Positions 3,072 through 52,360 of a stretch of 64,000 nt of DNA are shown piece by piece. Origin of the DNA: Candidatus Aminicenantes bacterium (GTDB lineage Bacteria > Acidobacteriota > Aminicenantia > Aminicenantales > JAFGBC01); NCBI GenBank assembly GCA_963702005.1, contig OY969696.1:3264001-3328000 (forward strand), given 5' to 3'. The notes below the pieces were generated by a model, which was not told where the DNA came from, ran no database searches, and was given only the letters and a program-made list of their open reading frames with translations. Each line of letters starts with the position of its first letter. Within the stretch, counting starts at the first letter, position 1. The translations under genes and the position numbers were made by a program.

Positions 3072-3995
3072 ATGGTCCTCATCACCCGGCCGTCCCAACT
3101 TACCCGGAGCCGTCGCTTGACGGCGGTCGCCATAGGAAACTTCGACGGCCTTCATCTCGGACACCGGCGGGTCCTGAAGACGCTCGTCGAGTCCGCCCGC
3201 CGCGGCCGTCTCCGGCCGATCGTCCTCACTTTCTCCCCGCATCCCGAAAAGGTCCTGGGCGGGAGGGCGATCCATATGATCCAGACCCTGGACCGTCGCG
3301 TCGATGGAATCCGCTCCTCCGGGATCCCGGACGTGAGAATCATGGCCTTCAACCGGGCCTTCGCCGGACTCCCGGCCGCCCGCTTCGCCGAAGAGATCCT
3401 CGCCCATCGGCTCAAAGCCCGGACGGTCGTCGTCGGCGCCGGTTTTCGCTTTGGGAAAGGACAGGAAGGGACCGCCGCGGCCCTTGCGGCTTGGGGAAGG
3501 CGGCTCGGGTTTTCAGTCAGGGCCGTTCCGTCCCTGCGCAAAGACGGCGGCCTCGTCTCGAGCTCGCGGATCAGGCGGCTTCTCGAGGCGGGCCGGATCG
3601 GCGAGGCCAATCGCCTCCTCGGCCGGCCCTACGAAATCGAGGGTTGCGTCGTCCGGGGGCACGCCCGGGGCCGCGCGCTCGGGTTCCCCACCGCTAATAT
3701 CCGCACGCCCAACGAGATACTGCCGCGGGGAATTTTCATCGCCAAACTCGTCCTGGGACGTCGGGAGCTGCCCGCCCTGGCCTACATCGGAACCCGGCCG
3801 ACCTTCCGGGAAACGACGATGGAGGTCGAAGTCCATCTCCTGGGCTTCCTGGGCGATCTCTACGGCCGCGCGGTCCGCGTCCTCTTCCTGAGGAAGCTCA
3901 GGGACGACCAAACCTTCCCCCGCCCGGAAGCGCTCGTCCGCCAGATGGCAAGGGACGCGGCGGCGGCCCGCGCCCACTTCCGGCGCTTAGCTTGA
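3072..3995 (+). CDS. ribF: Bifunctional riboflavin kinase/FAD synthetase
   Basis: AIGNFDGLHLGH, SSSRIR, GRALGFPTANI, GTRPTF, EVHLL. Confidence 0.95.
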   Translation: MVLITRPSQLTRSRRLTAVAIGNFDGLHLGHRRVLKTLVESARRGRLRPIVLTFSPHPEKVLGGRAIHMIQTLDRRVDGIRSSGIPDVRIMAFNRAFAGLPAARFAEEILAHRLKARTVVVGAGFRFGKGQEGTAAALAAWGRRLGFSVRAVPSLRKDGGLVSSSRIRRLLEAGRIGEANRLLGRPYEIEGCVVRGHARGRALGFPTANIRTPNEILPRGIFIAKLVLGRRELPALAYIGTRPTFRETTMEVEVHLLGFLGDLYGRAVRVLFLRKLRDDQTFPRPEALVRQMARDAAAARAHFRRLA

Positions 3996-4084
3996 CTTTT
4001 TCCCTGAGATATAGCATTTTTAGGACTCCGAACGTCGGCCGGAGGGGCGCCTTCGGTCCCGGCAACGCTCCGAGGAGGACGGTC

Positions 4085-4642
4085 ATGGACGACAAAGTCA
4101 AAGCCAAGGTCATGGACAACAACAAGATCCGGCGCGCCCTGTACCGGATGACGACCGAGATCATCGAGCGGAACCGGAACCTCAAGAACCTGGCCATCGT
4201 CGGGATCCGGACCCGGGGCATCTACATCGGCAAGCGGATCGCCCAGCTCATCAAGGAGTTCGAGCGGGTCGAGGTCCCGGTCGGCGTCATGGACATCACG
4301 CTCTACCGGGACGACATCGGCGAAATCGAGAGCCAGCCCGAAGTCCAGAAGACCGAGATCGAATTTTCAATCAACAAGAAAGACGTCCTCCTCGTCGACG
4401 ACGTTCTGTTCACGGGCCGAACGATCCGGGCCGCCATGGACTCCCTGTTCGACCTGGGCCGGCCCCAGACGATCCAGCTCCTCGTCCTGGTCGACCGCGG
4501 CCACCGCGAGCTTCCGCTCCGGGCCGACTACGTCGGCAAATTCCTGCCGACCTCGCGCCGCGAGACCGTCCAGGTCCGGCTCAAGGAGATCGACGACAGC
4601 GACGAAGTCCTGATCACGGAGCCCGCCGACCTCAAAAAATAG
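4085..4642 (+). CDS. pyrR: Pyrimidine operon regulator / uracil phosphoribosyltransferase
   Basis: [33 protein letters not shown]; GAGGAGG before ATG 4085. Confidence 0.95.
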
Positions 4643-4658
4643 ACGAAGAGGAGACCCC

Positions 4659-5597
4659 TTGGAGCTCAAGTCCAAACACCTGCTGGGGATCGAGACGCTG
4701 GAGCCTTCGGAAATCCGGCTCATTCTCCAGACGGCCGATTCCTTCCTCGAGATCTCGACCCGCGAGATCAAGAAGGTCCCGACCCTGCGCGGCAAGACGC
4801 TCATCAACCTCTTCTACGAAGCCAGCACCCGGACGCGAAGCTCGTTCGAGCTGGCCGGCAGGCGGCTGAGCGCCGACATCCTGAACTTCAGCAGGCAGTC
4901 CTCGTCCGTCGTCAAGGGGGAAACCCTCCGGGATACGATCCTAACCCTGGAGGCGATGCGGCCGGACGCCATCATCATCCGCCACGGCTCCTCGGGGTCG
5001 GCCTACTACCTGACGACCTTCTGCCGCTCCCACGTCATCAACGCCGGCGACGGCCTCCACGAACACCCGACCCAAGCCCTCCTCGACGCCTATACGATCA
5101 GGCAGGAGAAGAAGTCCTTCAAGGACCTCAAGGTCGTCCTGTGCGGGGACATCCTCCACAGCCGGGTCGCCCGCTCGAACCTCCATTGTCTGAAGAAGCT
5201 GGGCGCCGACCTGACCCTGTGCGGCCCGCCTACCCTCCTCCCGCCCGCCTTCGGGGCCTTCGGCGTCAAGATCCAGCACGATTTCGACAAGGCCTTGGAC
5301 GGGGCGGACGTCATCATGATGCTCCGCATCCAGCTCGAGCGGATGCAGAAGAGCTTCTTCCCCTCGGTTCGGGAATACCACCGGCTCTACGGGCTGACGG
5401 CCGAACGGGTCGCCCGGGCGGCCAAGGATGCCATCGTTATGCACCCCGGCCCCATCAACCGCGGCGTCGAGATCGCCCCCGACGTCGCCGACTCGGCCCA
5501 GTCCCTGATCCTCAGGCAGGTCGAGAACGGGGTCGCCATCCGGATGGCCGTCCTCTACCTGCTCTTAGGAGGCAAAGAAAGTGAAAGTGTTGGTTAA
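4659..5597 (+). CDS. pyrB: Aspartate carbamoyltransferase catalytic subunit
   Basis: [35 protein letters not shown]; TTG start after GAGGAG. Confidence 0.97.
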
Positions 5598-6862
5598 AAA
5601 CGGGCGGGTCATCGATCCCGTCTCCGGCATCGACGAGAACTCTGGACATCCTGATCGACAAGGGCAAGATCGCCGAGCTCAAGCCCCAGATCAAGGCCGA
5701 GGATGTCAAGACGGTGGACGCCGCCCGGCTCGTGGTCGCGCCCGGATTCATCGATATGCACGTCCATCTTCGCGAGCCCGGCCAGGAGCATAAAGAGACG
5801 ATCCGGACCGGAAGCCGGGCCGCCGCCCGGGGCGGTTTCACGACGATCTGCTGCATGCCGAACACCGTTCCCCCCAACGACAACCGCGGCGTCACGGAGT
5901 ACATCCTGTCCGAGGCCCGCAAGAGCGCCGTCGTCAACGTCCTTCCCATCGCCGCCATCAGCAAGGGGCTCAAGGGCGAGGAGTTGGCCGACCTGGCCGA
6001 CCTGGCCGCGGCCGGAGCCGTCGGCTTCTCGGACGACGGCAAGCCCCTCGCGAACAGCCTTCTGATGCGCCGGGCCCTCGAGTACACGCTCCCTCTCAAG
6101 CCGCTCGTTATCGACCACTGCGAGGAGCGGAGCTTGAGCGAGGACGGCCATATGCACGAGGGCTTCTGCTCGCACCGCTTCGGGATCCGGGGCATGCCCG
6201 CCGCAGCCGAGGAGATCATGGTCGCCCGGGACATCATCCTGGCCGAGCAGGCCGGAGCCCGTATCCACATCGCCCACCTGAGCGTCAAGGGCGCCGCGCG
6301 GTTGGTCCGGGAGGCCAAGGCCCGCAAAGTCCGGGTCACGGCCGAAGTGACGCCCCATCACCTTGTCCTAACCGACGCCGCCCTGGAGAGCTACGACACG
6401 AATTTCAAGATGAATCCGCCCCTCAGGAGCGAGGAAGACGTCGAGGCCCTGCTCGAGGCCGTCAAGGACGGGACGATCGACGTCATCGCCACCGACCACG
6501 CCCCCCACGCCGCCGAGGACAAGGACCAGGAATTCGACCTGGCCTCCTTCGGGATCACCGGCCTGGAGACGGCCGTCTCCGTTCTCCTCGACCGGCTCGT
6601 CCACAAGAAGATCATCTCGCTCGCCCGGCTCATCGAGCTGTGCGCCTCGAACCCGGCCCTCATCCTAGGCCTTGAAGGTAAGGGACGGATCACTCCCGGG
6701 GCCGACGCCGACCTCGTCCTCCTCGCCCTCGGCAAGGAGATCGTCGTCGAAGCCGGCGAGTTCCAGTCGCTGGGCCGAAACAGTCCTTTCATCGGCTGGA
6801 AGCTCAAGGGGACGCCGGTCATGACGATCGTCGGCGGACGAATCGTCTACCCCTTCGCCTGA
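5581..6862 (+). CDS. pyrC: Dihydroorotase (one extra A at 5638-5639 splits the frame)
   Basis: [13 protein letters not shown] in one frame continues as [11 protein letters not shown]...[28 protein letters not shown] in the +1 frame. Confidence 0.93.
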
Positions 6863-22224: not shown

Positions 22225-23505
22225 ATGAAACGGAAAGACTTTATCGCCTGGAACGCGGCGCTCCTGGGCGGCCTGGCCCTACCCCTGAGGGGCCGGCCGG
22301 CGGCCTCGATCGAAGACATCGGCGCGGCGGCCGCAACCGGCGACGAAGATGTTCTCTGGGACGTCCTCCGCGACCAGTTCCTTCTGGACCCCGAATGGAC
22401 CTTCCTGAACTTCGGCGGTCTCGGGGCCTGCCCCCTGCCGGTCCTCAACAGCCTGGTCGAATGGAACCAGGTCGAGGAGCGGGCCCCCAGCGCCGGACAC
22501 GATGAAAAACTCTGGAACGGGGTCAAGCAGAAGTTGGCCAAGCTCCTGGGGAAATCCTGCCGGATGGAGGACCTGGCCCTGATCGGAGGCGCGACCGAGG
22601 GAGTCAACATGATCGTCAACGGGCTCCCCCTCAAGAAGGGCGACGAGGTCATCACCTCGACCCACGAGCATGTCGCCGTCAACTCGGCCCTCCTCAATCG
22701 GATGCAGAAAGACGGAATCGTCATCCGGCTGTTCGAGCCGGACTTGACAAGCGGGCAGGGCAACGTCGACCGCATCGCCAAGCTCATCAACGGCCGGACT
22801 CGGCTCATCTTCATCAGCCACGTTACCTGCACGACGGGACAGCGCTTCCCCGAGATGGAAATCGGCCGCCTGGCCAAGGAGCGCGGCGTCTGGTTCGCCC
22901 TCGACGGCGCCCAGGCCCCCGTCAACGTCCCGTTCGACATCGTCGACTGCGGAGTCGACTTCTACACCTGCAGCACCCACAAGTGGGTCATGGGACCGAA
23001 GCGGACGGGATTCCTCTATGTCCGGCAGGGGTTGCTCGAGACGCTGCGGCCTCAGACCCTGGGCGGCGGGAGCTCCGAGCGTCAGGATATCTGGAAGAAG
23101 GAGCTCGTCTTCTATCCGACCGCCCAGCGCTACGAATACGGGACCCAGAACGATGCGCTTTTTTACGCCATGGGCAAAGCCATCGACTTCGTGCAGGCCA
23201 TCGGCCCCGAACGAATCTGGACCCGCGGCCGCGCTATGGCCGACCGTTTCTATGAAGGGCTTAAGGACATCCCGGGCGTCGAGAGGCTCTCGCCCGAGGA
23301 GGAGGCCTACCGCTCCTGCATGATCGGGTTCAGGATGAAGACGCACGAATTTACGGCCGTCAACGACCACCTTGCCAAGGACAAGATCCGTGCCCGGCCG
23401 GTAACCGAAGGCAAACTTAACTCGATCCGCGTTTCCTTCTTCCTCAACAACCGGATGGAGGACGTGACCAGGATCCTGGATTCGCTCAAGAAGCTGGCCG
23501 CCTGA
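22225..23505 (+). CDS. Class V PLP-dependent aminotransferase-fold enzyme (C-S lyase/isopenicillin epimerase-like), Tat-like signal
   Basis: FLNFGGLG, HEH, DGAQA, STHKW.MGPK.TG; no SufS/IscS catalytic Cys loop seen. Confidence 0.85.
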   Translation: MKRKDFIAWNAALLGGLALPLRGRPAASIEDIGAAAATGDEDVLWDVLRDQFLLDPEWTFLNFGGLGACPLPVLNSLVEWNQVEERAPSAGHDEKLWNGVKQKLAKLLGKSCRMEDLALIGGATEGVNMIVNGLPLKKGDEVITSTHEHVAVNSALLNRMQKDGIVIRLFEPDLTSGQGNVDRIAKLINGRTRLIFISHVTCTTGQRFPEMEIGRLAKERGVWFALDGAQAPVNVPFDIVDCGVDFYTCSTHKWVMGPKRTGFLYVRQGLLETLRPQTLGGGSSERQDIWKKELVFYPTAQRYEYGTQNDALFYAMGKAIDFVQAIGPERIWTRGRAMADRFYEGLKDIPGVERLSPEEEAYRSCMIGFRMKTHEFTAVNDHLAKDKIRARPVTEGKLNSIRVSFFLNNRMEDVTRILDSLKKLAA

Positions 23506-46235: not shown

Positions 46236-47108
46236 TTATTTTCTCAGGGCCTCGATCTTTTCCGGAGTGGCCAGGATGGCGCGGACGACATCGACGGCCA
46301 GGTAGGCGACGACGAACCCGATATAACTCAGGAAAGGCACCAGTCCCGACAAGACGATGATCCGGCCCGTGTACCATGCCCTCTTCCAGTCGGCCAGGAG
46401 ACGGTACTGAGAGCCAAAGATTCCAAAGGCGTCAATGGCCAGCAGCACAAAACCGGCTACGATCCCGATCCCGAAAAGGATCGGGACTAAGCGCATGAAG
46501 CCCTTGATGAATAGAACGATGATTCCGATCGCCTCCTGGCCGGCCGAATTCTTGCCCCCCGTCTCGGTGGATACGGTTTCCGGATTGAACACGACGATGG
46601 CAAAAAGCTCGAGCAGGATGAAAAGGGCCGCGCCGGCCAGAATGAACCGGATTCCCGCGCCCTGGATCGACCGGATCGCGCCCAGGACGATCGCGATCAG
46701 GCCTCCGATGACGGCCAAGAGCCCGAGGCAGTCGTGGAAGGCCCTGGAGGTAAGCGAGCTGGGATTGTTCTCGATCAGCGAGTCCCCGGTCGTAGCGAAA
46801 CGGTGGGCGGCGTACTGAACGACAAGGATGAGAACGACCCAGGCGATTCCGTAAAGGAATGCGGAGAAAGAGTCGAGGCGAATGGCCACGATGAGCGAGA
46901 AGATAAAGCCGAGAGCCGCGGCGGCCAGAAGTCCGACATGGCCGATCCGGAATATCCAGCGGACGGCGAAATCCAGAACTTTGCGATTGAGCAGGTCTTT
47001 GGTCGAAGCCAGGACTTTCTCCAGGACGGCAACACCCCACAGCCGGACAGCCTTCGTCTTGTCTTGCGTCTTGTCTTGCGTCTTGTCTTGCTTTTTTTCT
47101 TGAACCAT
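46236..47108 (-). CDS. Hypothetical multi-TM membrane protein
   Basis: About 6 hydrophobic segments; AGGAGG before ATG. Confidence 0.75.
   Translation of the reverse strand: MVQEKKQDKTQDKTQDKTKAVRLWGVAVLEKVLASTKDLLNRKVLDFAVRWIFRIGHVGLLAAAALGFIFSLIVAIRLDSFSAFLYGIAWVVLILVVQYAAHRFATTGDSLIENNPSSLTSRAFHDCLGLLAVIGGLIAIVLGAIRSIQGAGIRFILAGAALFILLELFAIVVFNPETVSTETGGKNSAGQEAIGIIVLFIKGFMRLVPILFGIGIVAGFVLLAIDAFGIFGSQYRLLADWKRAWYTGRIIVLSGLVPFLSYIGFVVAYLAVDVVRAILATPEKIEALRK
47055..47090. repeat. 12-bp tandem repeat x3 encoding (QDKT)3
   Basis: CGTCTTGTCTTG repeated three times perfectly. Confidence 0.9.
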
Positions 47109-47254
47109 TGTTCCCTCCTAAATGTGTTTCTATTATACGTCAAGCGGGATCACGGCGGTCAATCCCACTTCATATTTATGCCTTTCAACATATTTTTTCA
47201 CTCGATAGTATTTAGTTCCAGATACCTTATCTTCGGACGGCGCGCACACCAGAC

Positions 47255-47758
47255 CTAGTCGGGGCCGGAAACGCGCAGCATGAACGTCTGCCGCCCGACC
47301 AAAGCCGGGCTCCATCGCCGCGGCGGCTGGAGGAACACTTGGGTCAACTTCGCGAGCAGCACGGACACAGGGAGCTCCCACCGTGAGATCGGGCGAAACC
47401 CAAAGTGGGCGAAGTAGCTCGGCTTAAGAGTGGCGAGCCATACACGGCTTATGTTAGCCTGGCCGGCGCGGGCGAGGCTTGCCTCCACCAACAGGCGACC
47501 GATCCCTCGCCCTTGCGCGGCGGGCTGGACTGCCACCGAAAGGATCTCCGCAAGATGCGCCGCATATTGATGCAGCGCGGCGCAGCCAACCATCCGATCA
47601 GAGCTGTCGCGTGCCACCAGAAAGTCGGAGAGCCGCATCTGGACGTTGGCCGGTGAACGCCGAAAGAGCGAGGGATCGGCCTGATTGGCCCGGAGGACGG
47701 CCACTATGTCGTCGACATCGCACTGAGCAGCGGGGTGAACCGTGATGGTATCAACCAT
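47255..47758 (-). CDS. GNAT acetyltransferase (ArgA-like); starts like a cassette gene
   Basis: VGCAALH, AEILSVAV.P..QGRGIG, YFAHFGF; GTTAGGC then AGAGGA precede ATG. Confidence 0.85.
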   Translation of the reverse strand: MVDTITVHPAAQCDVDDIVAVLRANQADPSLFRRSPANVQMRLSDFLVARDSSDRMVGCAALHQYAAHLAEILSVAVQPAAQGRGIGRLLVEASLARAGQANISRVWLATLKPSYFAHFGFRPISRWELPVSVLLAKLTQVFLQPPRRWSPALVGRQTFMLRVSGPD

Positions 47759-47787
47759 GGTCCTCTATCCGCTGTTGCCTAACAATG

Positions 47788-47815
47788 ATTATACAGACTG
47801 TATAAGTCGAGTCAA
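47788..47815 (-). promoter_or_regulatory. Near-consensus sigma70 promoter with overlapping palindrome, inside the array
   Basis: TTGACT-N16-TATAAT; TTATACAG-A-CTGTATAA at 47789-47805. Confidence 0.65.
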
Positions 47816-47850
47816 CGCCCATCGCCAAACCTCCGTGTCCTGAGTTGGTT

Positions 47851-47916
47851 ATCTAACGTTAAGGCTCGCCAGCAGTCACGCCTTCTCAGGCCATCCGATG
47901 AAGCCTGTTGTTAAAG
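47851..47916 (-). other. attC site (66 bp)
   Basis: CTTTAAC AACAGGCTTCA...GAGCCTTAAC GTTAGAT; includes the TAA stop of the upstream gene. Confidence 0.8.
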
Positions 47917-48279
47917 CTTTTTCTCAATGAACCCGATTGCAAGATCAAGCTCCTCAATAATGCGCGGACGTACTTTTGGAATAGAAATCCATGTTGCTTT
48001 CAACGCTTTCAACATACGCAATGAATAGGGGTAATAACGCTTGAAATTGCGGAGTTCGTAAATGATGGCTGCTTGGCGATCTACGAACATTGAACCACCT
48101 TCCTTCTCCGGTTCAACGAGTTCCTTAACAAGCTTGTGATATACTTCAAATTCTTTCCAGTAACGTGTAGCTCTGCGCTCAATGTGAAACTTGTAGATAC
48201 CGAAACTAAAAGCAACAGCAGCGCCCAAGGCGCTCATCTGAGTACCATAAAGTTTAAGCAACTCTAATAATGCATTCAT
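47911..48279 (-). CDS. Cassette-encoded hypothetical protein with one N-terminal TM
   Basis: AT-rich ORF bounded by GTTAAAG and CTTTAAC; GGAG ribosome site. Confidence 0.75.
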   Translation of the reverse strand: MNALLELLKLYGTQMSALGAAVAFSFGIYKFHIERRATRYWKEFEVYHKLVKELVEPEKEGGSMFVDRQAAIIYELRNFKRYYPYSLRMLKALKATWISIPKVRPRIIEELDLAIGFIEKKL

Positions 48280-48294
48280 TGGCTCTCCAATAGG

Positions 48295-48381
48295 CTTTAA
48301 CGGCTAACCTAACCGGCGCACCGCAGAGCTCGAGCACTAGAAAAAACCCGAGGACGCGTTCGATTGAGCAAATTGTTCGGC
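48295..48381 (-). other. attC site (87 bp)
   Basis: GCCGAAC AATTTGCTCAATCG...GCGCCGGTTAGGTTAGCC GTTAAAG. Confidence 0.75.
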
Positions 48382-48386
48382 GAAAT

Positions 48387-49109
48387 TTACATGAATTTTC
48401 TTCGCCTGAATGCTTGGACATCCTCTCTCGATAGTTCGAACCACTCACCGCCCTTTCTCTTAGCTTCGAACCGCCCATGCCAGTATGCCTCAATGCCGGG
48501 CGGATCGTCTGTCTTTATACTATGAATTATTCTCGCAGGTTTGGGAAGTTGTATCCCCAACTCGTACTCTCTTCTTCCAAGGGAATTGCTTCTGCCAATC
48601 TTGTAGTAACGCCCAGATTTCATAAGGTATACGTACCCGAAAGTTGGCGTAGCCGGTGAGCCTTGACCTGGCCTCGAAGTACCAGCTGCGGCCGAAAGAG
48701 GGCTGCATGTTTTGATGACATCTTCATAGCCGATCCTCGCAGAACAGTACTCTACTATTTTGTTAGCCAGCTCCGCCTTGTTTCCGAGCCGTTGGAAGGT
48801 CTTTTCATTGGGAAACGTCTTGTCAGTCCATGTCTTCAGTCTAAGCTCGTTCCGAACGGGGAAGTGACCCAATTCTCTAATCAAGAAGATAAGTCGCTCA
48901 AGCAACCACTCCTGGTTATACGATTTTTGCATCGTGTTAGGGGAAAAACCGGCTTCACGAACCGCGTCGCTCCATCGAATCCAGTACTTTCCGGACCAAT
49001 CCGATTCCTTAAGGCCCGTTTCCGCCTCAAATCTTTTTTTTCCGAGAGGCTGGCCGTTATTCTGTTGGGCCATTCGTACTATTTCATCGAGAATGTGTTT
49101 CTTTTCCAT
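48387..49109 (-). CDS. GIY-YIG (T5orf172/MUG113-type) nuclease with N-terminal helical repeats
   Basis: GYVYLMKSGRYYKIGRS, EAYWHGRF...GEWFEL. Confidence 0.85.
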   Translation of the reverse strand: MEKKHILDEIVRMAQQNNGQPLGKKRFEAETGLKESDWSGKYWIRWSDAVREAGFSPNTMQKSYNQEWLLERLIFLIRELGHFPVRNELRLKTWTDKTFPNEKTFQRLGNKAELANKIVEYCSARIGYEDVIKTCSPLSAAAGTSRPGQGSPATPTFGYVYLMKSGRYYKIGRSNSLGRREYELGIQLPKPARIIHSIKTDDPPGIEAYWHGRFEAKRKGGEWFELSREDVQAFRRRKFM

Positions 49110-49124
49110 ATCATTAGCTATGTC

Positions 49125-49184
49125 GCCGAACGTGCGGCATCAGCGGCGGCGTGTAGCGCCGCCCGCTGCATGCCATTGTTAGGT
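49125..49184 (-). other. attC site (60 bp, canonical)
   Basis: ACCTAAC AAT GGCATGCAGCGGGCGGCG CTACA CGCCGCCGCTGATGCC GCAC GTTCGGC, with two unpaired bases in the left arm. Confidence 0.92.
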
Positions 49185-49194
49185 GGCGTGGCTT

Positions 49195-49470
49195 CTACTT
49201 CTGGTTCGCCTGGATCCACTTGCTGACATCCTCTGGCATTCCATACCAAGCAGACGGCGCTGGAGACACTCCTACATAGAGCTTGTCGTTTGGATCCAGT
49301 GCTTGCCGGAGATGGTCCCGGACCTGCACAGGTGTTGCGTTGGCATAGATCAGATATGCGGAGCCGCCAAGGCGCGCCCAACTCGGGTAGGTCTTGATGA
49401 GCCTGATGAGCCGCTCGTAGTTCTGCCCTGGATTGATGAGGTCATAGCTGATAATCAGGATCTGGTTCAT
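49195..49470 (-). CDS. Small Cas2/VapD-like ferredoxin-fold protein
   Basis: ILIISYDL..PGQNY..LI..IK...W....SAYLI....VRD.L...D.ND.L.V; ATGA overlap with the upstream HEPN gene. Confidence 0.75.
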   Translation of the reverse strand: MNQILIISYDLINPGQNYERLIRLIKTYPSWARLGGSAYLIYANATPVQVRDHLRQALDPNDKLYVGVSPAPSAWYGMPEDVSKWIQANQK

Positions 49471-50222
49471 GCTCGACACCCCAGCTCATACATCTGCTTT
49501 GCTATGAGGGACACGAGCTTGATGCAGTCCTCGGCGTCCTTCTTATTCACAACGTTCTCCTTCGGCGGGTTCTCAGTGAGATTATAATCTCCACGATGAG
49601 CAATTGCGTGACGACGCTCGGTGAACCGGTTGAGGTCCTCTCGCAACTTGTCTTCATTCAACTGAGCCTTGACTGCCACCTCATGGAAAACGTCATCGTA
49701 ACCCACGATGCTGAGCTGCTCCTCGATGTTCTTGGTACCCTGGAATGAGCGCCGCTCAAAATCGCCACGAAACGCCTTCTCGACTCTCTCGAGGAGGTCG
49801 TCTTTCCGGGCAGCATCGATGAGGACATCGTCCTTAAGAAACTTCTTGATCTCCGCGGATAGGGCTGCAGGCAGGGCGACCGCCTTCGAAGCAAGCAGGG
49901 TTCTTGTTCGAGCGATGACAAAATCCCGGACGAACGCGTCGAGCGCGGAGATGGCAAGGACAATCGCTGCCCGGTGGGCGTCGGAGGTGTACTTCTCAGG
50001 CTTGCCGGCTTTACCGTGGACAGCTTCATGGAGCTTGACGAGGTTCCTAGCTCTCTGAATGCAGAGATCAAAGATGTTATACGAATTGAGTGCCCTCTCT
50101 ACCGACGGCGTGGGCGCGAGCATAGCTTTCGTCTCGGTGGCCTTCGGGCCTCCGGACTTCCCGAGGCCCTTGCCTTTCGCTTCGCGCGTCCTGTTCAACG
50201 GAGACGTCACTTCTTCCGCCAC
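49467..50222 (-). CDS. HEPN-domain putative ribonuclease (start uncertain)
   Basis: RAAIVLAISALDAFVRD helix and Rx4H motif RHAIAH; all-helical. Confidence 0.78.
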   Translation of the reverse strand: MAEEVTSPLNRTREAKGKGLGKSGGPKATETKAMLAPTPSVERALNSYNIFDLCIQRARNLVKLHEAVHGKAGKPEKYTSDAHRAAIVLAISALDAFVRDFVIARTRTLLASKAVALPAALSAEIKKFLKDDVLIDAARKDDLLERVEKAFRGDFERRSFQGTKNIEEQLSIVGYDDVFHEVAVKAQLNEDKLREDLNRFTERRHAIAHRGDYNLTENPPKENVVNKKDAEDCIKLVSLIAKQMYELGCRA

Positions 50223-50245
50223 CTAACAATGTTTATATCGATCCA
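50221..50245 (-). other. attI-like site at the head of the array
   Basis: GATCGATATAAACATT-GTTAGGT, with no attC hairpin upstream; resembles TATAATCATT-GTTAGGC at 47777-47793. Confidence 0.5.
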
Positions 50246-50422
50246 GATAATACCCCAGACATGGTATCGATTGCCATATAAGATGCCTTCGGAAAAGGCC
50301 GCGGTTCGTGTCCAAAGTGAATATCATCTTATCCGGCCCTTTCGAGGAAAGGGTAATACCGGCGCGACGGAAAGTCAACATATTGTAGATGCCGGCGAAT
50401 TTGTTATAATGAGGCGCCGCAA

Positions 50423-52360
50423 ATGATATCTTTCAAAACCGCTTTAAAAAAAAAGATTTACGAAAAGCTCAAGACTGCTTATCCGCTCGCACTCTCAGAC
50501 ATCGATCTCAATCCCGCGCCGCAGCAGAAGCTGGGCGATTACGCCATGGCCTTCCCCTTCGCGCTGGCCAAACAGCTCAAGCAGCCGCCCCGCAAGATCG
50601 CCGAAGCCATCGCTCCCCTCCTCTCTGGTCTCGAAGGCGTCGCCAAAGTCGAAGTCGCCGGCGGCGGCTACGTCAATCTGTTCCTAGATCGGGTTGCCTT
50701 TTTTTCAGGGGCCAGGCGCACAATCGTCAGCTCCGGCCTCTCGCCCCAAGAGCGAAAGATCATAGTCGAGCACACCAACATTAATCCCAACAAGGCCGCC
50801 CACATCGGCCATCTCAGAAATGCCTGCCTGGGCGATACCCTGGTCCGATGCTTGAAATATTCGGGCGAAACCGTCGAAACCCAGAATTACATCGACGACA
50901 CCGGCGTCCAGGTCGTGGATGTCGTCTTCGGATTCATGGAGCTCGAGAAGAAATCCCTGGCCGCGGTCGAGGCCCTCTCCGGGAAATTCGACTTCTACTG
51001 CTGGGACCTCTATGCCCGGACGGCGGCGTACCTGGCCGAGCATACGGAGGCCCAGCCCCGCAAGACCGCGATCCTCAAGAGAATCGAGCACGGCGAGGGC
51101 GAGGAAGGGTCCATGGCCCGCCACGTCTCGCGGCGGATAATCCAGGCGCACCTCGCCACCATGAAGCGCCTCGACATCAGCTACGACGTCCTACCCTGCG
51201 AAAGCAGCATCCTCGGCCTCGAGTTTTGGGAAAAAGCCTTCACGACCTTGAAACAGCGGCAGGCCATCTACTTCTCGGCCGAGGGAGAAACAAAAGGCTG
51301 CTGGGTTATGAAGCTCGAGGACGAGACCGACAAGGAAAAGATCATCGTCCGCTCGGACGGGACCGTGACCTACGTCGGCAAAGACATCGCTTACCAGCTT
51401 TGGAAGTTCGGGCTCCTCGAACGGGACTTCCACTACGAGCCGTTCCAAAAGGATAACGGCCATACGCTTTGGATCACGACGACCGTTCCGCATCCGGGGG
51501 AGCCCTCGTTCGGCGCCGCCTCCAAGGTCTATAATGTCATCGACACCCGGCAGTCCTACCTCCAGAAGGTCGTCTACCAGGGGCTGCGCTCCCTCCACTT
51601 CGACGAGCAGGCCGCGAAATCCGTCCATTTCTCCTACGAGATGGTCGCCCTCTCCCCCAAGAGCCTCAAGGAGCTGGGGATGGAGCTCGCGGCCGAGGAC
51701 AAAGACAAGACCTTTCTCGAGGTTTCGGGTCGGAAGGGGTTGGGCGTCAAGGCCGACGACCTCCTGGACCGGCTCGAAGGGAAGGCCCGGGCCGAGGTCG
51801 AGAAGCGGAATCCCGACCTCCCGGTCGACGAAAAAACGGCCATCTCCCGCCATATCGCCTGCGGGGCGCTCCGCTACTTCATGATCAAGTTCGCCCGGAA
51901 CTCGCTCATCATCTTCGATTTCGAGGAAGCGCTGAGCTTCGAGGGCGAGACCGGCCCTTACCTCCAGTACACGCTCGTTCGCCTCAACAGCATCTTCCGT
52001 AAGCTCGAGGAGCGGGAGGGGATCAAGGCTGACGATGTCGGCGGGCGGGGTCTATTAGCGCCCGCGTCCCTTGCGGCGCTCTCCGAAACTGAGGCGGGCG
52101 ATTTCTGGGATCTCGTGTTCTACGCCTCGCAATTCGACGAGGAAGTCCTCCGCTCCATCCAATCGCTCGAGTTCTCGCACCTGGCCAAGTTCACCTTCAA
52201 CCTCTGCCAAAAGCTCAACGCCTACTACCATGTCTACCCCGTACTAAACGAGGAAAACAAGGAGCTTAAGGATATCCGCCTCCTGACGATCCACTATATC
52301 CGGGAGACGCTGAGGAAGGCCCTGGATCTTATGGGCATCCCGGCGCCGACGAAGATGTGA
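50423..52360 (+). CDS. argS: Arginine--tRNA ligase
   Basis: VEHTNINPNKAAHIGHLRN, RSDGTVTY, FEGETGPYLQY, DALR tail; TGnTATAAT at 50402-50410. Confidence 0.96.
   Translation: MISFKTALKKKIYEKLKTAYPLALSDIDLNPAPQQKLGDYAMAFPFALAKQLKQPPRKIAEAIAPLLSGLEGVAKVEVAGGGYVNLFLDRVAFFSGARRTIVSSGLSPQERKIIVEHTNINPNKAAHIGHLRNACLGDTLVRCLKYSGETVETQNYIDDTGVQVVDVVFGFMELEKKSLAAVEALSGKFDFYCWDLYARTAAYLAEHTEAQPRKTAILKRIEHGEGEEGSMARHVSRRIIQAHLATMKRLDISYDVLPCESSILGLEFWEKAFTTLKQRQAIYFSAEGETKGCWVMKLEDETDKEKIIVRSDGTVTYVGKDIAYQLWKFGLLERDFHYEPFQKDNGHTLWITTTVPHPGEPSFGAASKVYNVIDTRQSYLQKVVYQGLRSLHFDEQAAKSVHFSYEMVALSPKSLKELGMELAAEDKDKTFLEVSGRKGLGVKADDLLDRLEGKARAEVEKRNPDLPVDEKTAISRHIACGALRYFMIKFARNSLIIFDFEEALSFEGETGPYLQYTLVRLNSIFRKLEEREGIKADDVGGRGLLAPASLAALSETEAGDFWDLVFYASQFDEEVLRSIQSLEFSHLAKFTFNLCQKLNAYYHVYPVLNEENKELKDIRLLTIHYIRETLRKALDLMGIPAPTKM

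Follow-up and report, generated by a model that had tools for sequence, protein, structure and literature searches.

A probable remnant of a sedentary chromosomal integron, with a predicted attI-type docking site, upstream of argS in an Aminicenantes bacterium

Introduction

We describe an integrase-less array of integron cassettes in the genome of a Candidatus Aminicenantes bacterium (assembly GCA_963702005.1, contig OY969696.1). The window, i.e., the whole stretch of DNA that was analysed, has 64,000 nucleotides (nt) and lies within one 4.31-Mb contig (G000:C1:3264001-3328000, where G000 is the genome of the window). By marker genes, this genome is 94% complete. The array is flanked on its left by a gene for a membrane protein (46236-47108, minus strand) and on its right by argS (50423-52360, plus strand). 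We consider the stretch 47120-50320 to be, very probably, the remnant of a sedentary chromosomal integron, which has kept a docking site of attI type and three cassettes and from which the integrase gene, intI, has gone.

Such arrays are known as attC site clusters that lack an integron-integrase (CALINs). In a 2016 survey, 279 CALINs were counted in the genome set, intI pseudogenes lay near only 15 of these 279, and loss of the integrase was proposed as their origin; attI is described there as unknown for most integrons and hence not searchable (PMC4889954). An original prediction, made from the window alone, had placed a CALIN directly upstream of argS. Here we examine that locus together with two other genomes of the genus, the congeneric genome G001 and a third genome, G002, and with more distant relatives.

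Results

Layout of the locus

Five open reading frames (ORFs) lie between the membrane-protein gene and argS, and all five are on the minus strand, as had been predicted. Several of these genes were also said to be AT-richer than the host, and the G+C content across 47800-49200 is indeed 44-50%, against 57-63% in most of the flanks. The predicted gap of ~195 base pairs (bp) between the first cassette and argS is borne out, with 195 bp measured from the core of cassette 1 to the argS ATG. Read on the minus strand, the array would consist of the attI-type site, cassettes 1 to 3, each ending in an attC site, a short stub of a second attI type (type B) with a strong promoter, and a gene for a GNAT acetyltransferase.

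attC sites

The original prediction named three attC sites on the minus strand, here called attC1 (49125-49184), attC2 (48295-48381) and attC3 (47851-47916). We searched for them with two covariance models, R1 and R2, which stand in for the attc_4 model of IntegronFinder. Class 1 integron arrays were fetched from plasmids (loci L037-L046) with the integrase (IntI) of G001 as the probe, and their attC sites were located downstream of annotated cassettes. R1 was built from 10 shorter class 1 plasmid sites with the textbook structure of R and L boxes; a MAFFT alignment of all 17 class 1 sites misplaced the L' boxes of the 60-nt sites and was not used for it. R2 was built from 51 realigned sites, of which plasmids supplied 20 and Aminicenantes relatives 31; G000 supplied none. 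Of seven long class 1 sites held out from R1, four were recovered (dfrA12, arr-3, IMP-56 and dfrA17) and three were missed (dfrA14, dfrA1 and qnrVC1). Thus, R1 is specific and its sensitivity is moderate. A rule-based scanner found attC1 and missed attC2, attC3 and several true class 1 sites, and was given up for the covariance models. A search of Rfam (evalue mode, 46-51 kb) returned no attC family and only sub-threshold chance matches.

With default filters, attC1 and attC2 are the sole R1 matches in the 64-kb window at E<=10. With filters off, they are the best two among eight matches in 44-54 kb. The top three matches of R2 in the window are the three predicted sites, with 56.8, 22.0 and 16.7 bits. 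Next come 15.5 bits at 47584-47651 (plus strand), inside the GNAT coding region, and 13.9 bits at 22727-22819 (plus strand); both are probably noise and mark the noise level of R2. Genome-wide at E<=1, R1 gives at least four matches (150 of 4367 first-look candidates scored), two at this locus and two near 3.94-3.97 Mb. R2 gives at least seven (150 of 2928 scored), all within three loci: four downstream of a deleted intI, one at 3.9687 Mb and two at the argS locus.

attC1 is a canonical site of 60 nt, with the R'' box ACCTAAC and the R' box GTTCGGC. It scores 40.7 bits (E 7e-8) with R1 and 56.8 bits (E 7e-11) with R2, and its DNA folds at -24 kcal/mol. The geometry comprises spacers of 5 and 6 nt and, along the stem, 3 bp, a bulge, 6 bp, a bulge and 5 bp. 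The two bulged bases are on the 3' arm of the window plus strand, so the plus strand is the recombinogenic bottom strand and the minus strand is the coding one, an arrangement shared with class 1 arrays. Extrahelical bases of attC sites are usually G and T; those of attC1 are C and C.

attC2 has 87 nt, with the R'' box GCCGAAC and the R' box GTTAAAG, and is decayed. It keeps the R and L boxes and the first bulge, and its stem has degenerated (fold -8.4 kcal/mol); the scores are 22.5 bits with R1 and 22.0 bits with R2 (E 0.0067 in the window). A metagenome contig, L085, carries a copy of the corresponding cassette with 93% identity, and the 87-nt counterpart of attC2 there scores 47.6 bits. The window copy differs from it by substitutions in the stem and a 5-nt duplication. 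Given this difference in score and the stem changes, we regard attC2 as a real site that is decaying.

attC3, with the R'' box CTTTAAC and the R' box GTTAGAT, is probably a degenerate attC site. It keeps the boxes, the spacers and, of the stem, an L box of 3 bp only, and folds poorly (-9.2 kcal/mol). The complete attC architecture is found in attC1 and is partly kept in attC2 and attC3. Two of the three predicted sites, attC1 and attC2, are thus upheld by both models at their exact coordinates and strand, and the third is marginal (R2 E 0.11). The original prediction was to be dropped if the attC covariance model failed on all three, and the models do not fail. As in CALINs generally, at least two sites detected by covariance models share one strand and are at most 4 kb apart.

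Cassette borders

Each cassette was predicted to begin with a core that complements the core at its own end. This holds in three of three cassettes, where the start core is the reverse complement of the cassette's own R'' box at seven of seven positions. Adjacent R'' and R' boxes match at only 5/7, 3/7 and 5/7 positions. The chance expectation for such a core 7-mer is 0.002-0.009 per 60 nt. The start core of cassette 1 is read at 50221-50227. The borders fall between the G and the TT of the GTT core, which places cassette 1 at 49131-50226, cassette 2 at 48301-49130 and cassette 3 at 47857-48300, all on the minus strand.

The borders of cassette 2 are confirmed by the independent copy on L085. 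The 93% identity covers 833 bp, equivalent to 49131-48299 of the window, with the G of GTTCGGC at one end and the following core's GTT at the other. Past both of these crossover points, the flanks are unrelated. A separate observation concerns positions 300-410 of L085, upstream of the cassette 2 copy, which are AT-rich and hold ATAATAT-type words, like the regions close to intI in G008 and G074; this segment may be another attI type.

The attI-type element

The ~80-100 bp between cassette 1 and argS had not been named before, and their features identify them as an attI-type site, predicted from sequence comparison (50221-50320, minus strand). The R box, GTTAGGT, is at 50227-50221 and the crossover would be between G50227 and T50226. 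Beyond the R box there are an AAC-N3-GTT core, a conserved TTATA...TATAA palindrome and repeats of the CCRTATAA type. The AAC-N3-GTT core and the repeated CCRTATAA-type words resemble the boxes and repeats of attI sites. The AAC-N3-GTT geometry is common to the element core, ...ATATAAAC-ATT-GTTAGGT, and attI1, ...CCTAAAAC-AAA-GTTAGCC (L037), and the two share AAAC-N3-GTTAG as read from that plasmid locus.

The element recurs at 20 places in 13 of the 121 genomes of the order, a count that leaves out one further listed match, L059, which is spurious. In all 18 aligned copies, the R-box AAC/GTT is the exact point from which homology extends. Past the R-box AAC, three or four bases vary as cassette-derived TTRRR(Y), with the cassette starts TTAGG, TTCGG, TTAGC, TTGGA, TTATG, TTAGA and TTGGG. 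Thus, the crossover would lie in a GTTRRRY box with one conserved side and one variable, cassette side, as it does in attI sites. Two of the 20 copies abut a contig end, which leaves 18 that are testable for attC sites nearby. Sixteen of these have an R2 attC match within 2.7 kb, on the expected side and strand, and a dedicated search of 19 element loci found none of 21 attC matches on the other strand. The element was also tried as an attC or half attC site and rejected, because no copy has an R'' box at the far end and neither model gives a match.

In relatives, the element occupies the position of attI, with a full-length intI on one side and the first cassette on the other. In G068:C94 and G089:C18, it lies ~165 nt past the stop codon of a full-length intI that reads toward it (IntI scores 478.5 and 477.1 bits, with a cut-off of 265), and in G068:C94 attC sites follow the element on the same strand. 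In G001:C36, a variant of the element lies between a full-length intI (489.5 bits) and the first cassette. In G000 and G023, the element also stands next to the deleted intI genes. Among the 20 copies, two adjoin a full-length intI, four adjoin intI stubs of 22-56 residues and 14, including that of the window, adjoin neither.

The element also includes a hairpin, GCCTT...AAGGC, at 50285-50299, which is terminator-like on the minus strand. Across 18 copies, compensatory changes are seen in four of its five pairs. The hairpin is probably the terminator of intI, kept in the orphan copies.

The argS locus in relatives

The contig G001:C182 has the same membrane-protein gene (90% identity) and the same argS together with the region upstream of it (86%). 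It matches our query at 1-884 and 3987-6125 only, and between these segments lie ~1.96 kb of different cassettes, with an ORF of 208 amino acids (aa), an attC site of 132 nt (32-52 bits) and a DUF3800 gene. The crossover base is the exact point where homology resumes. The region that varies against G001 is thus 47120-50220, between flanks (the membrane-protein gene on one side, the attI-type site and argS on the other) that are conserved at 86-90%. The G001 array at argS has no intI of its own; an intact IntI is encoded on another contig of this genome. G002 gives no information, as its contig breaks off at the border of the array, and the turnover of cassettes at the argS locus is therefore read from one informative relative, G001. 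The original prediction had called for this comparison and would have been refuted by identical, fixed gene content in relatives. What G001 has is the same flanks with different cassettes.

A side observation concerns the membrane-protein gene. A tandem GTCTTGC/GTCTTGT repeat at 47047-47095 encodes an N-terminal (KTQD)n run in the protein, and the units of this run are fewer in the G001 ortholog (MVQEKKQDKTKAV... against MVQEKKQDKTQDKTQDKTKAV...).

Integrase genes and other integron platforms

A search for IntI across the genome had also been proposed. With TIGR02249, the 4.31-Mb contig gives one IntI-class match, of 238.6 bits over model positions 163-315, and the other 17 matches reach at most 78 bits. 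A tblastn search of G000 with the G001 IntI agrees on a single IntI-class gene. This gene (3940761-3941219) is 620 kb away from the array and consists of residues 1-16 fused to residues 192-344 of the G001 IntI, so that residues 17-191 are missing. In the window, tblastn with the G001 IntI finds nothing, and no intI lies within the 4-10 kb around the array that CALINs are required to be free of. Neither intI nor an intI stub is present between the element and argS, as it would be in a complete integron. A former intI at the argS locus is consequently deduced from relatives only.

The deleted intI belongs to a second platform (G000:C1:3931264-3941219; L001, L036), which also has a diverged attI-type element, a first cassette encoding an ATPase-like protein of 433 aa, and four attC matches on the same strand with 32.7-41.3 bits. 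A third platform, at 3.969 Mb (G000:C1:3968690-3970460), is orthologous to G001:C36, with 94% identity on both sides of a clean deletion of ~1.03 kb that removed intI. It keeps a variant of the attI-type element (3969311) and an attC site at 3968690 (61.7 bits). Thus, the integron platforms of G000 number at least three, and none of its integrase genes is intact. The original prediction held that the integrase was lost or acts in trans. Loss is documented in G000 by the deleted genes; action in trans does not hold for G000 now and is possible for G001. It also assumed that intI normally stands divergent from the first cassette. Its absence here is confirmed, and the divergence is not: in relatives, intI stands upstream of the attI-type site, in the same orientation as the cassettes.

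Two further observations were made at these platforms. The 3.969-Mb locus also keeps an upstream fused AbrB/MazE-PemK-like gene, named by eye from its sequence. In G023 (G023:C1:2516000-2548000; L035, L023), an array of more than 30 kb has 25 R1 attC matches, all on one strand, and, dispersed among them, about seven attI-type elements and several fragments of intI; one of its cassettes carries a BsuBI/PstI-type restriction endonuclease and an Eco57I-type methylase.

Cassette cargo

Cassette 1 carries two genes. The first (49467-50222, minus strand) encodes a HEPN protein of the RiboL-PSP family (Pfam PF18735, E 2.1e-12). The second is an overlapping ORF of 94 aa, p94 (49195-49479, minus strand). 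The pair is kept in two metagenome-assembled genomes of Verrucomicrobiota (55-56% and 60-65% identity), where the p94 partner adjoins HEPN at both homolog loci; no attC match was found at either of these two loci on the genome contigs. The structural model of p94, from a three-sequence alignment (predicted local distance difference test score, pLDDT, 81), has a beta-alpha-beta-beta-alpha-beta ferredoxin fold. Among the best 20 Foldseek matches, Cas2 entries are the majority and GhoS ranks fourth, with weak E-values of 4e-3 to 4e-2. p94 is not an MNT and has instead a Cas2/GhoS-like ferredoxin fold, weakly matched. Sequence searches of the PDB with HEPN and p94 found nothing. It is plausible, judging from families and a predicted fold, that HEPN and p94 would form a toxin-antitoxin or defence pair.

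Cassette 2 carries one gene (48387-49109, minus strand), for a 240-aa protein with a MUG113/T5orf172 domain (Pfam PF13455, E 2.4e-13). A metagenome scan with this protein gave 227 relatives, from which 80 loci were kept, and in 10 of the 80 an attC match begins at most 15 nt downstream of the homolog on the same strand. Cassette 3 also carries one gene, an ORF at 47911-48279 (minus strand) for a 122-aa protein of no known family. It has no match in Pfam, NCBIfam or PADLOC, and an Atlas look-up returned unnamed clusters only. Its sole homolog in 401 genomes of the phylum is in G463 (27% identity), and an attC match of 28.2 bits lies 13 nt downstream of that homolog on the same strand. PADLOC names none of the five cargo proteins, and NCBIfam names GNAT only. 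The cargo was said to lean towards nucleases. By family and fold names alone, this can be maintained for three of the five genes, i.e., HEPN, the gene with the Cas2/GhoS-like fold and MUG113/T5orf172.

The GNAT end of the array

The GNAT acetyltransferase gene (47255-47758, minus strand; Pfam PF00583, E 1.1e-12) is absent from the orthologous G001 locus. Directly upstream of it is the type-B stub, a short remnant of attI type (47777-47815, minus strand) with the R box GTTAGGC and the palindrome TTATACAGNCTGTATAA. Over its first 29 nt, it shares 100% identity with the copy in G001:C252 and 96% with that in G001:C464, both of which head attC arrays. The C464 copy adjoins a C-terminal stub of intI, found by tblastn; the stub at the C252 copy was read by eye only. 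In the window at 47812-47850, ~15 nt might be a 3' stub of intI, but the likeness to G001:C464 is purely visual and lacks significance. A near-consensus promoter of the sigma-70 type, TTGACT-16-TATAAT (47788-47815, minus strand), matches 11 of 12 consensus positions and reads into GNAT, and its -10 box is part of the type-B palindrome.

Discussion

The locus is a CALIN, which is a known kind of element, and loss of the integrase is its supported interpretation. Because the array keeps an attI-type site, it is better described as a decapitated integron than as a bare attC cluster. Cassettes would have entered as circles, with IntI recombining the folded bottom strand of attC (the window plus strand) with the double-stranded attI-type site between the G and the TT of the core. 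Recombination of circular cassettes at this point explains why each start core complements the cassette's own R'' box. The element presumably binds IntI and would be the actual recombination partner, and a promoter within it may drive the cassettes. Normally, intI would stand just upstream of the attI-type site, co-oriented with the cassettes; at argS it would have gone without a trace. Since G000 has no intact integron integrase, the array is expected to be no longer rearranged and its attC sites to be decaying.

Several observations weigh against this interpretation. At ~22 bits, attC2 is close to the noise, as a match of 19.8 bits was found on the strand opposite the query gene among the metagenome homolog loci, and its genome-wide E-value is 0.12-0.45. 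attC3 is not significant alone: its 16.7 bits with R2 (E 0.11) stand beside the 15.5-bit match in a coding region, and with R1 it scores 3.4 bits. GNAT has no attC site of its own, with no match in 47100-47255. Two of the 18 testable copies of the element, both in G017, have no attC site nearby. Between the element and argS (50286-50425), blastn and six-frame reading find no remnant of intI, and at 94% completeness of the genome an unassembled intI could still exist. The 20-bp palindrome of the element is conserved in sequence without compensatory changes, and the main role of the element could be that of a promoter or terminator leader.

In that last case, the element would be a portable regulatory leader, made up of the intI terminator and a cassette promoter or operator, which abuts the true crossover and is itself no recombination site. 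The terminator-like hairpin with its compensatory changes and the near-consensus promoter of the type-B copy would suit such a leader, and a palindrome conserved without covariation is typical of a repressor operator. We nevertheless consider it unlikely, since in 18 of 18 aligned copies the exact start of the homology is the R-box AAC/GTT, followed by the cassette-end signature TTRRR(Y), the AAC-N3-GTT geometry equals that of attI1, and the element takes the attI position beside full-length intI. Moreover, the two roles are not exclusive. In the account of integron structure given in the 2016 survey, attI regions of known integrons also carry the cassette promoter Pc (PMC4889954). Less probable is that an integrase in trans inserted the cassettes at a secondary site of the attG type upstream of argS, which was never a platform. 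Cassette insertion outside att sites is reported in a preprint (10.1101/2022.09.11.507474), and the lack of an intI remnant between the element and argS fits; on the argS side, however, stands the ~80-100-bp element that is common to intI-linked attI positions in three other genomes.

We give marginally less weight still to an array that remains active in G000, with an integrase encoded in another part of this genome acting on it in trans. G001, with an intact IntI on one contig and an argS array without one on another, shows such an arrangement, and the 94% completeness of G000 leaves it some room. In G000, however, the sole IntI-class match (238.6 bits) lacks residues 17-191, the intI of another locus is deleted, and attC2 is decayed relative to its 93%-identical copy. 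It is hardly conceivable that the locus is no integron at all, but a small defence islet in which GTT/AAC cores arose by chance beside ordinary terminator hairpins. The weak folds of attC3 and attC2 (-9.2 and -8.4 kcal/mol) and the defence-like look of the cargo would agree with this; against it, models from unrelated attC sites match the exact coordinates, all three cassettes match their own cores at 7/7 positions, the borders of cassette 2 recur precisely in a different context, and G001 holds other content. Chance cores are already contradicted by the model matches, the own-core matches and the cassette 2 borders. We therefore prefer an integron that has lost its integrase.

A broader scenario is offered tentatively. 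The argS site might be one satellite platform of a distributed integron, in which attI-type sites, scattered over several chromosomal positions per genome in this order and mostly without an integrase of their own, would go on gaining and shedding cassettes by means of one IntI in trans; we think this possible, with the odds against it. Turnover at the argS locus after the loss of intI would have used an integrase supplied in trans. Equally tentative is the combined proposal that this holds and that, in addition, the argS intI was lost (or was never present) before the split of G000 and G001, with the whole cassette content replaced since.

The array resembles the CALINs of the 2016 survey in its two or more attC sites on a single strand, the lack of a neighbouring intI, its small size and its mostly unknown cargo, and the integrase loss proposed there as an origin is directly visible elsewhere in G000. 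It is unlike those CALINs in that it keeps a recognisable attI-type site, marking a former or a satellite platform (PMC4889954). In chromosomal integrons of Treponema (T. denticola type), intI is transcribed toward attI, and relatives of our genome have a similar layout, with intI co-oriented with the cassettes; the present array differs in phylum and in the absence of intI from the window (PMC3607928). The G001 IntI is 52% identical to IntI1. Class 1 mobile integrons are similar in the geometry of attC1, which is that of the aadA-type 60-nt sites, in the usual direction of the gene relative to attC, and in the AAAC-N3-GTTAG shared by the element core and attI1. They differ from our array, which has no resistance genes and no integrase, sits at a chromosomal sedentary site and belongs to a lineage with reversed intI orientation. 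Delta-attI-type sites are reported to take the place of attC inside class 1/2 clinical arrays and were shown to recombine (Sci Rep 2026, PMC12901181). Copies of attI type also occur inside arrays here, in the >30-kb array of G023 and as the type-B stub at 47777-47815. Unlike those clinical sites, which recombine (PMC12901181), the copies here are known from sequence alone. No integron description for this Aminicenantes lineage was found in the literature among the matches listed.

Taken alone, the argS array is one more CALIN in a class that is already abundant. It is of value as a clean, well-delimited example in an uncultivated lineage. What it adds is the attI-type marker, together with the documented serial loss of intI. 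The lineage is losing its integrases: one intI is internally deleted, one has been cleanly excised and one platform is traceless, while docking sites and cassettes persist. The attI-type element provides a marker for the origin of integrase-less arrays, which, in the CALIN counts of the 2016 survey, was open for 95% of CALINs (PMC4889954). If the argS site were indeed a satellite platform, the attI signature would become a general means of identifying many CALINs as decapitated or satellite integrons.

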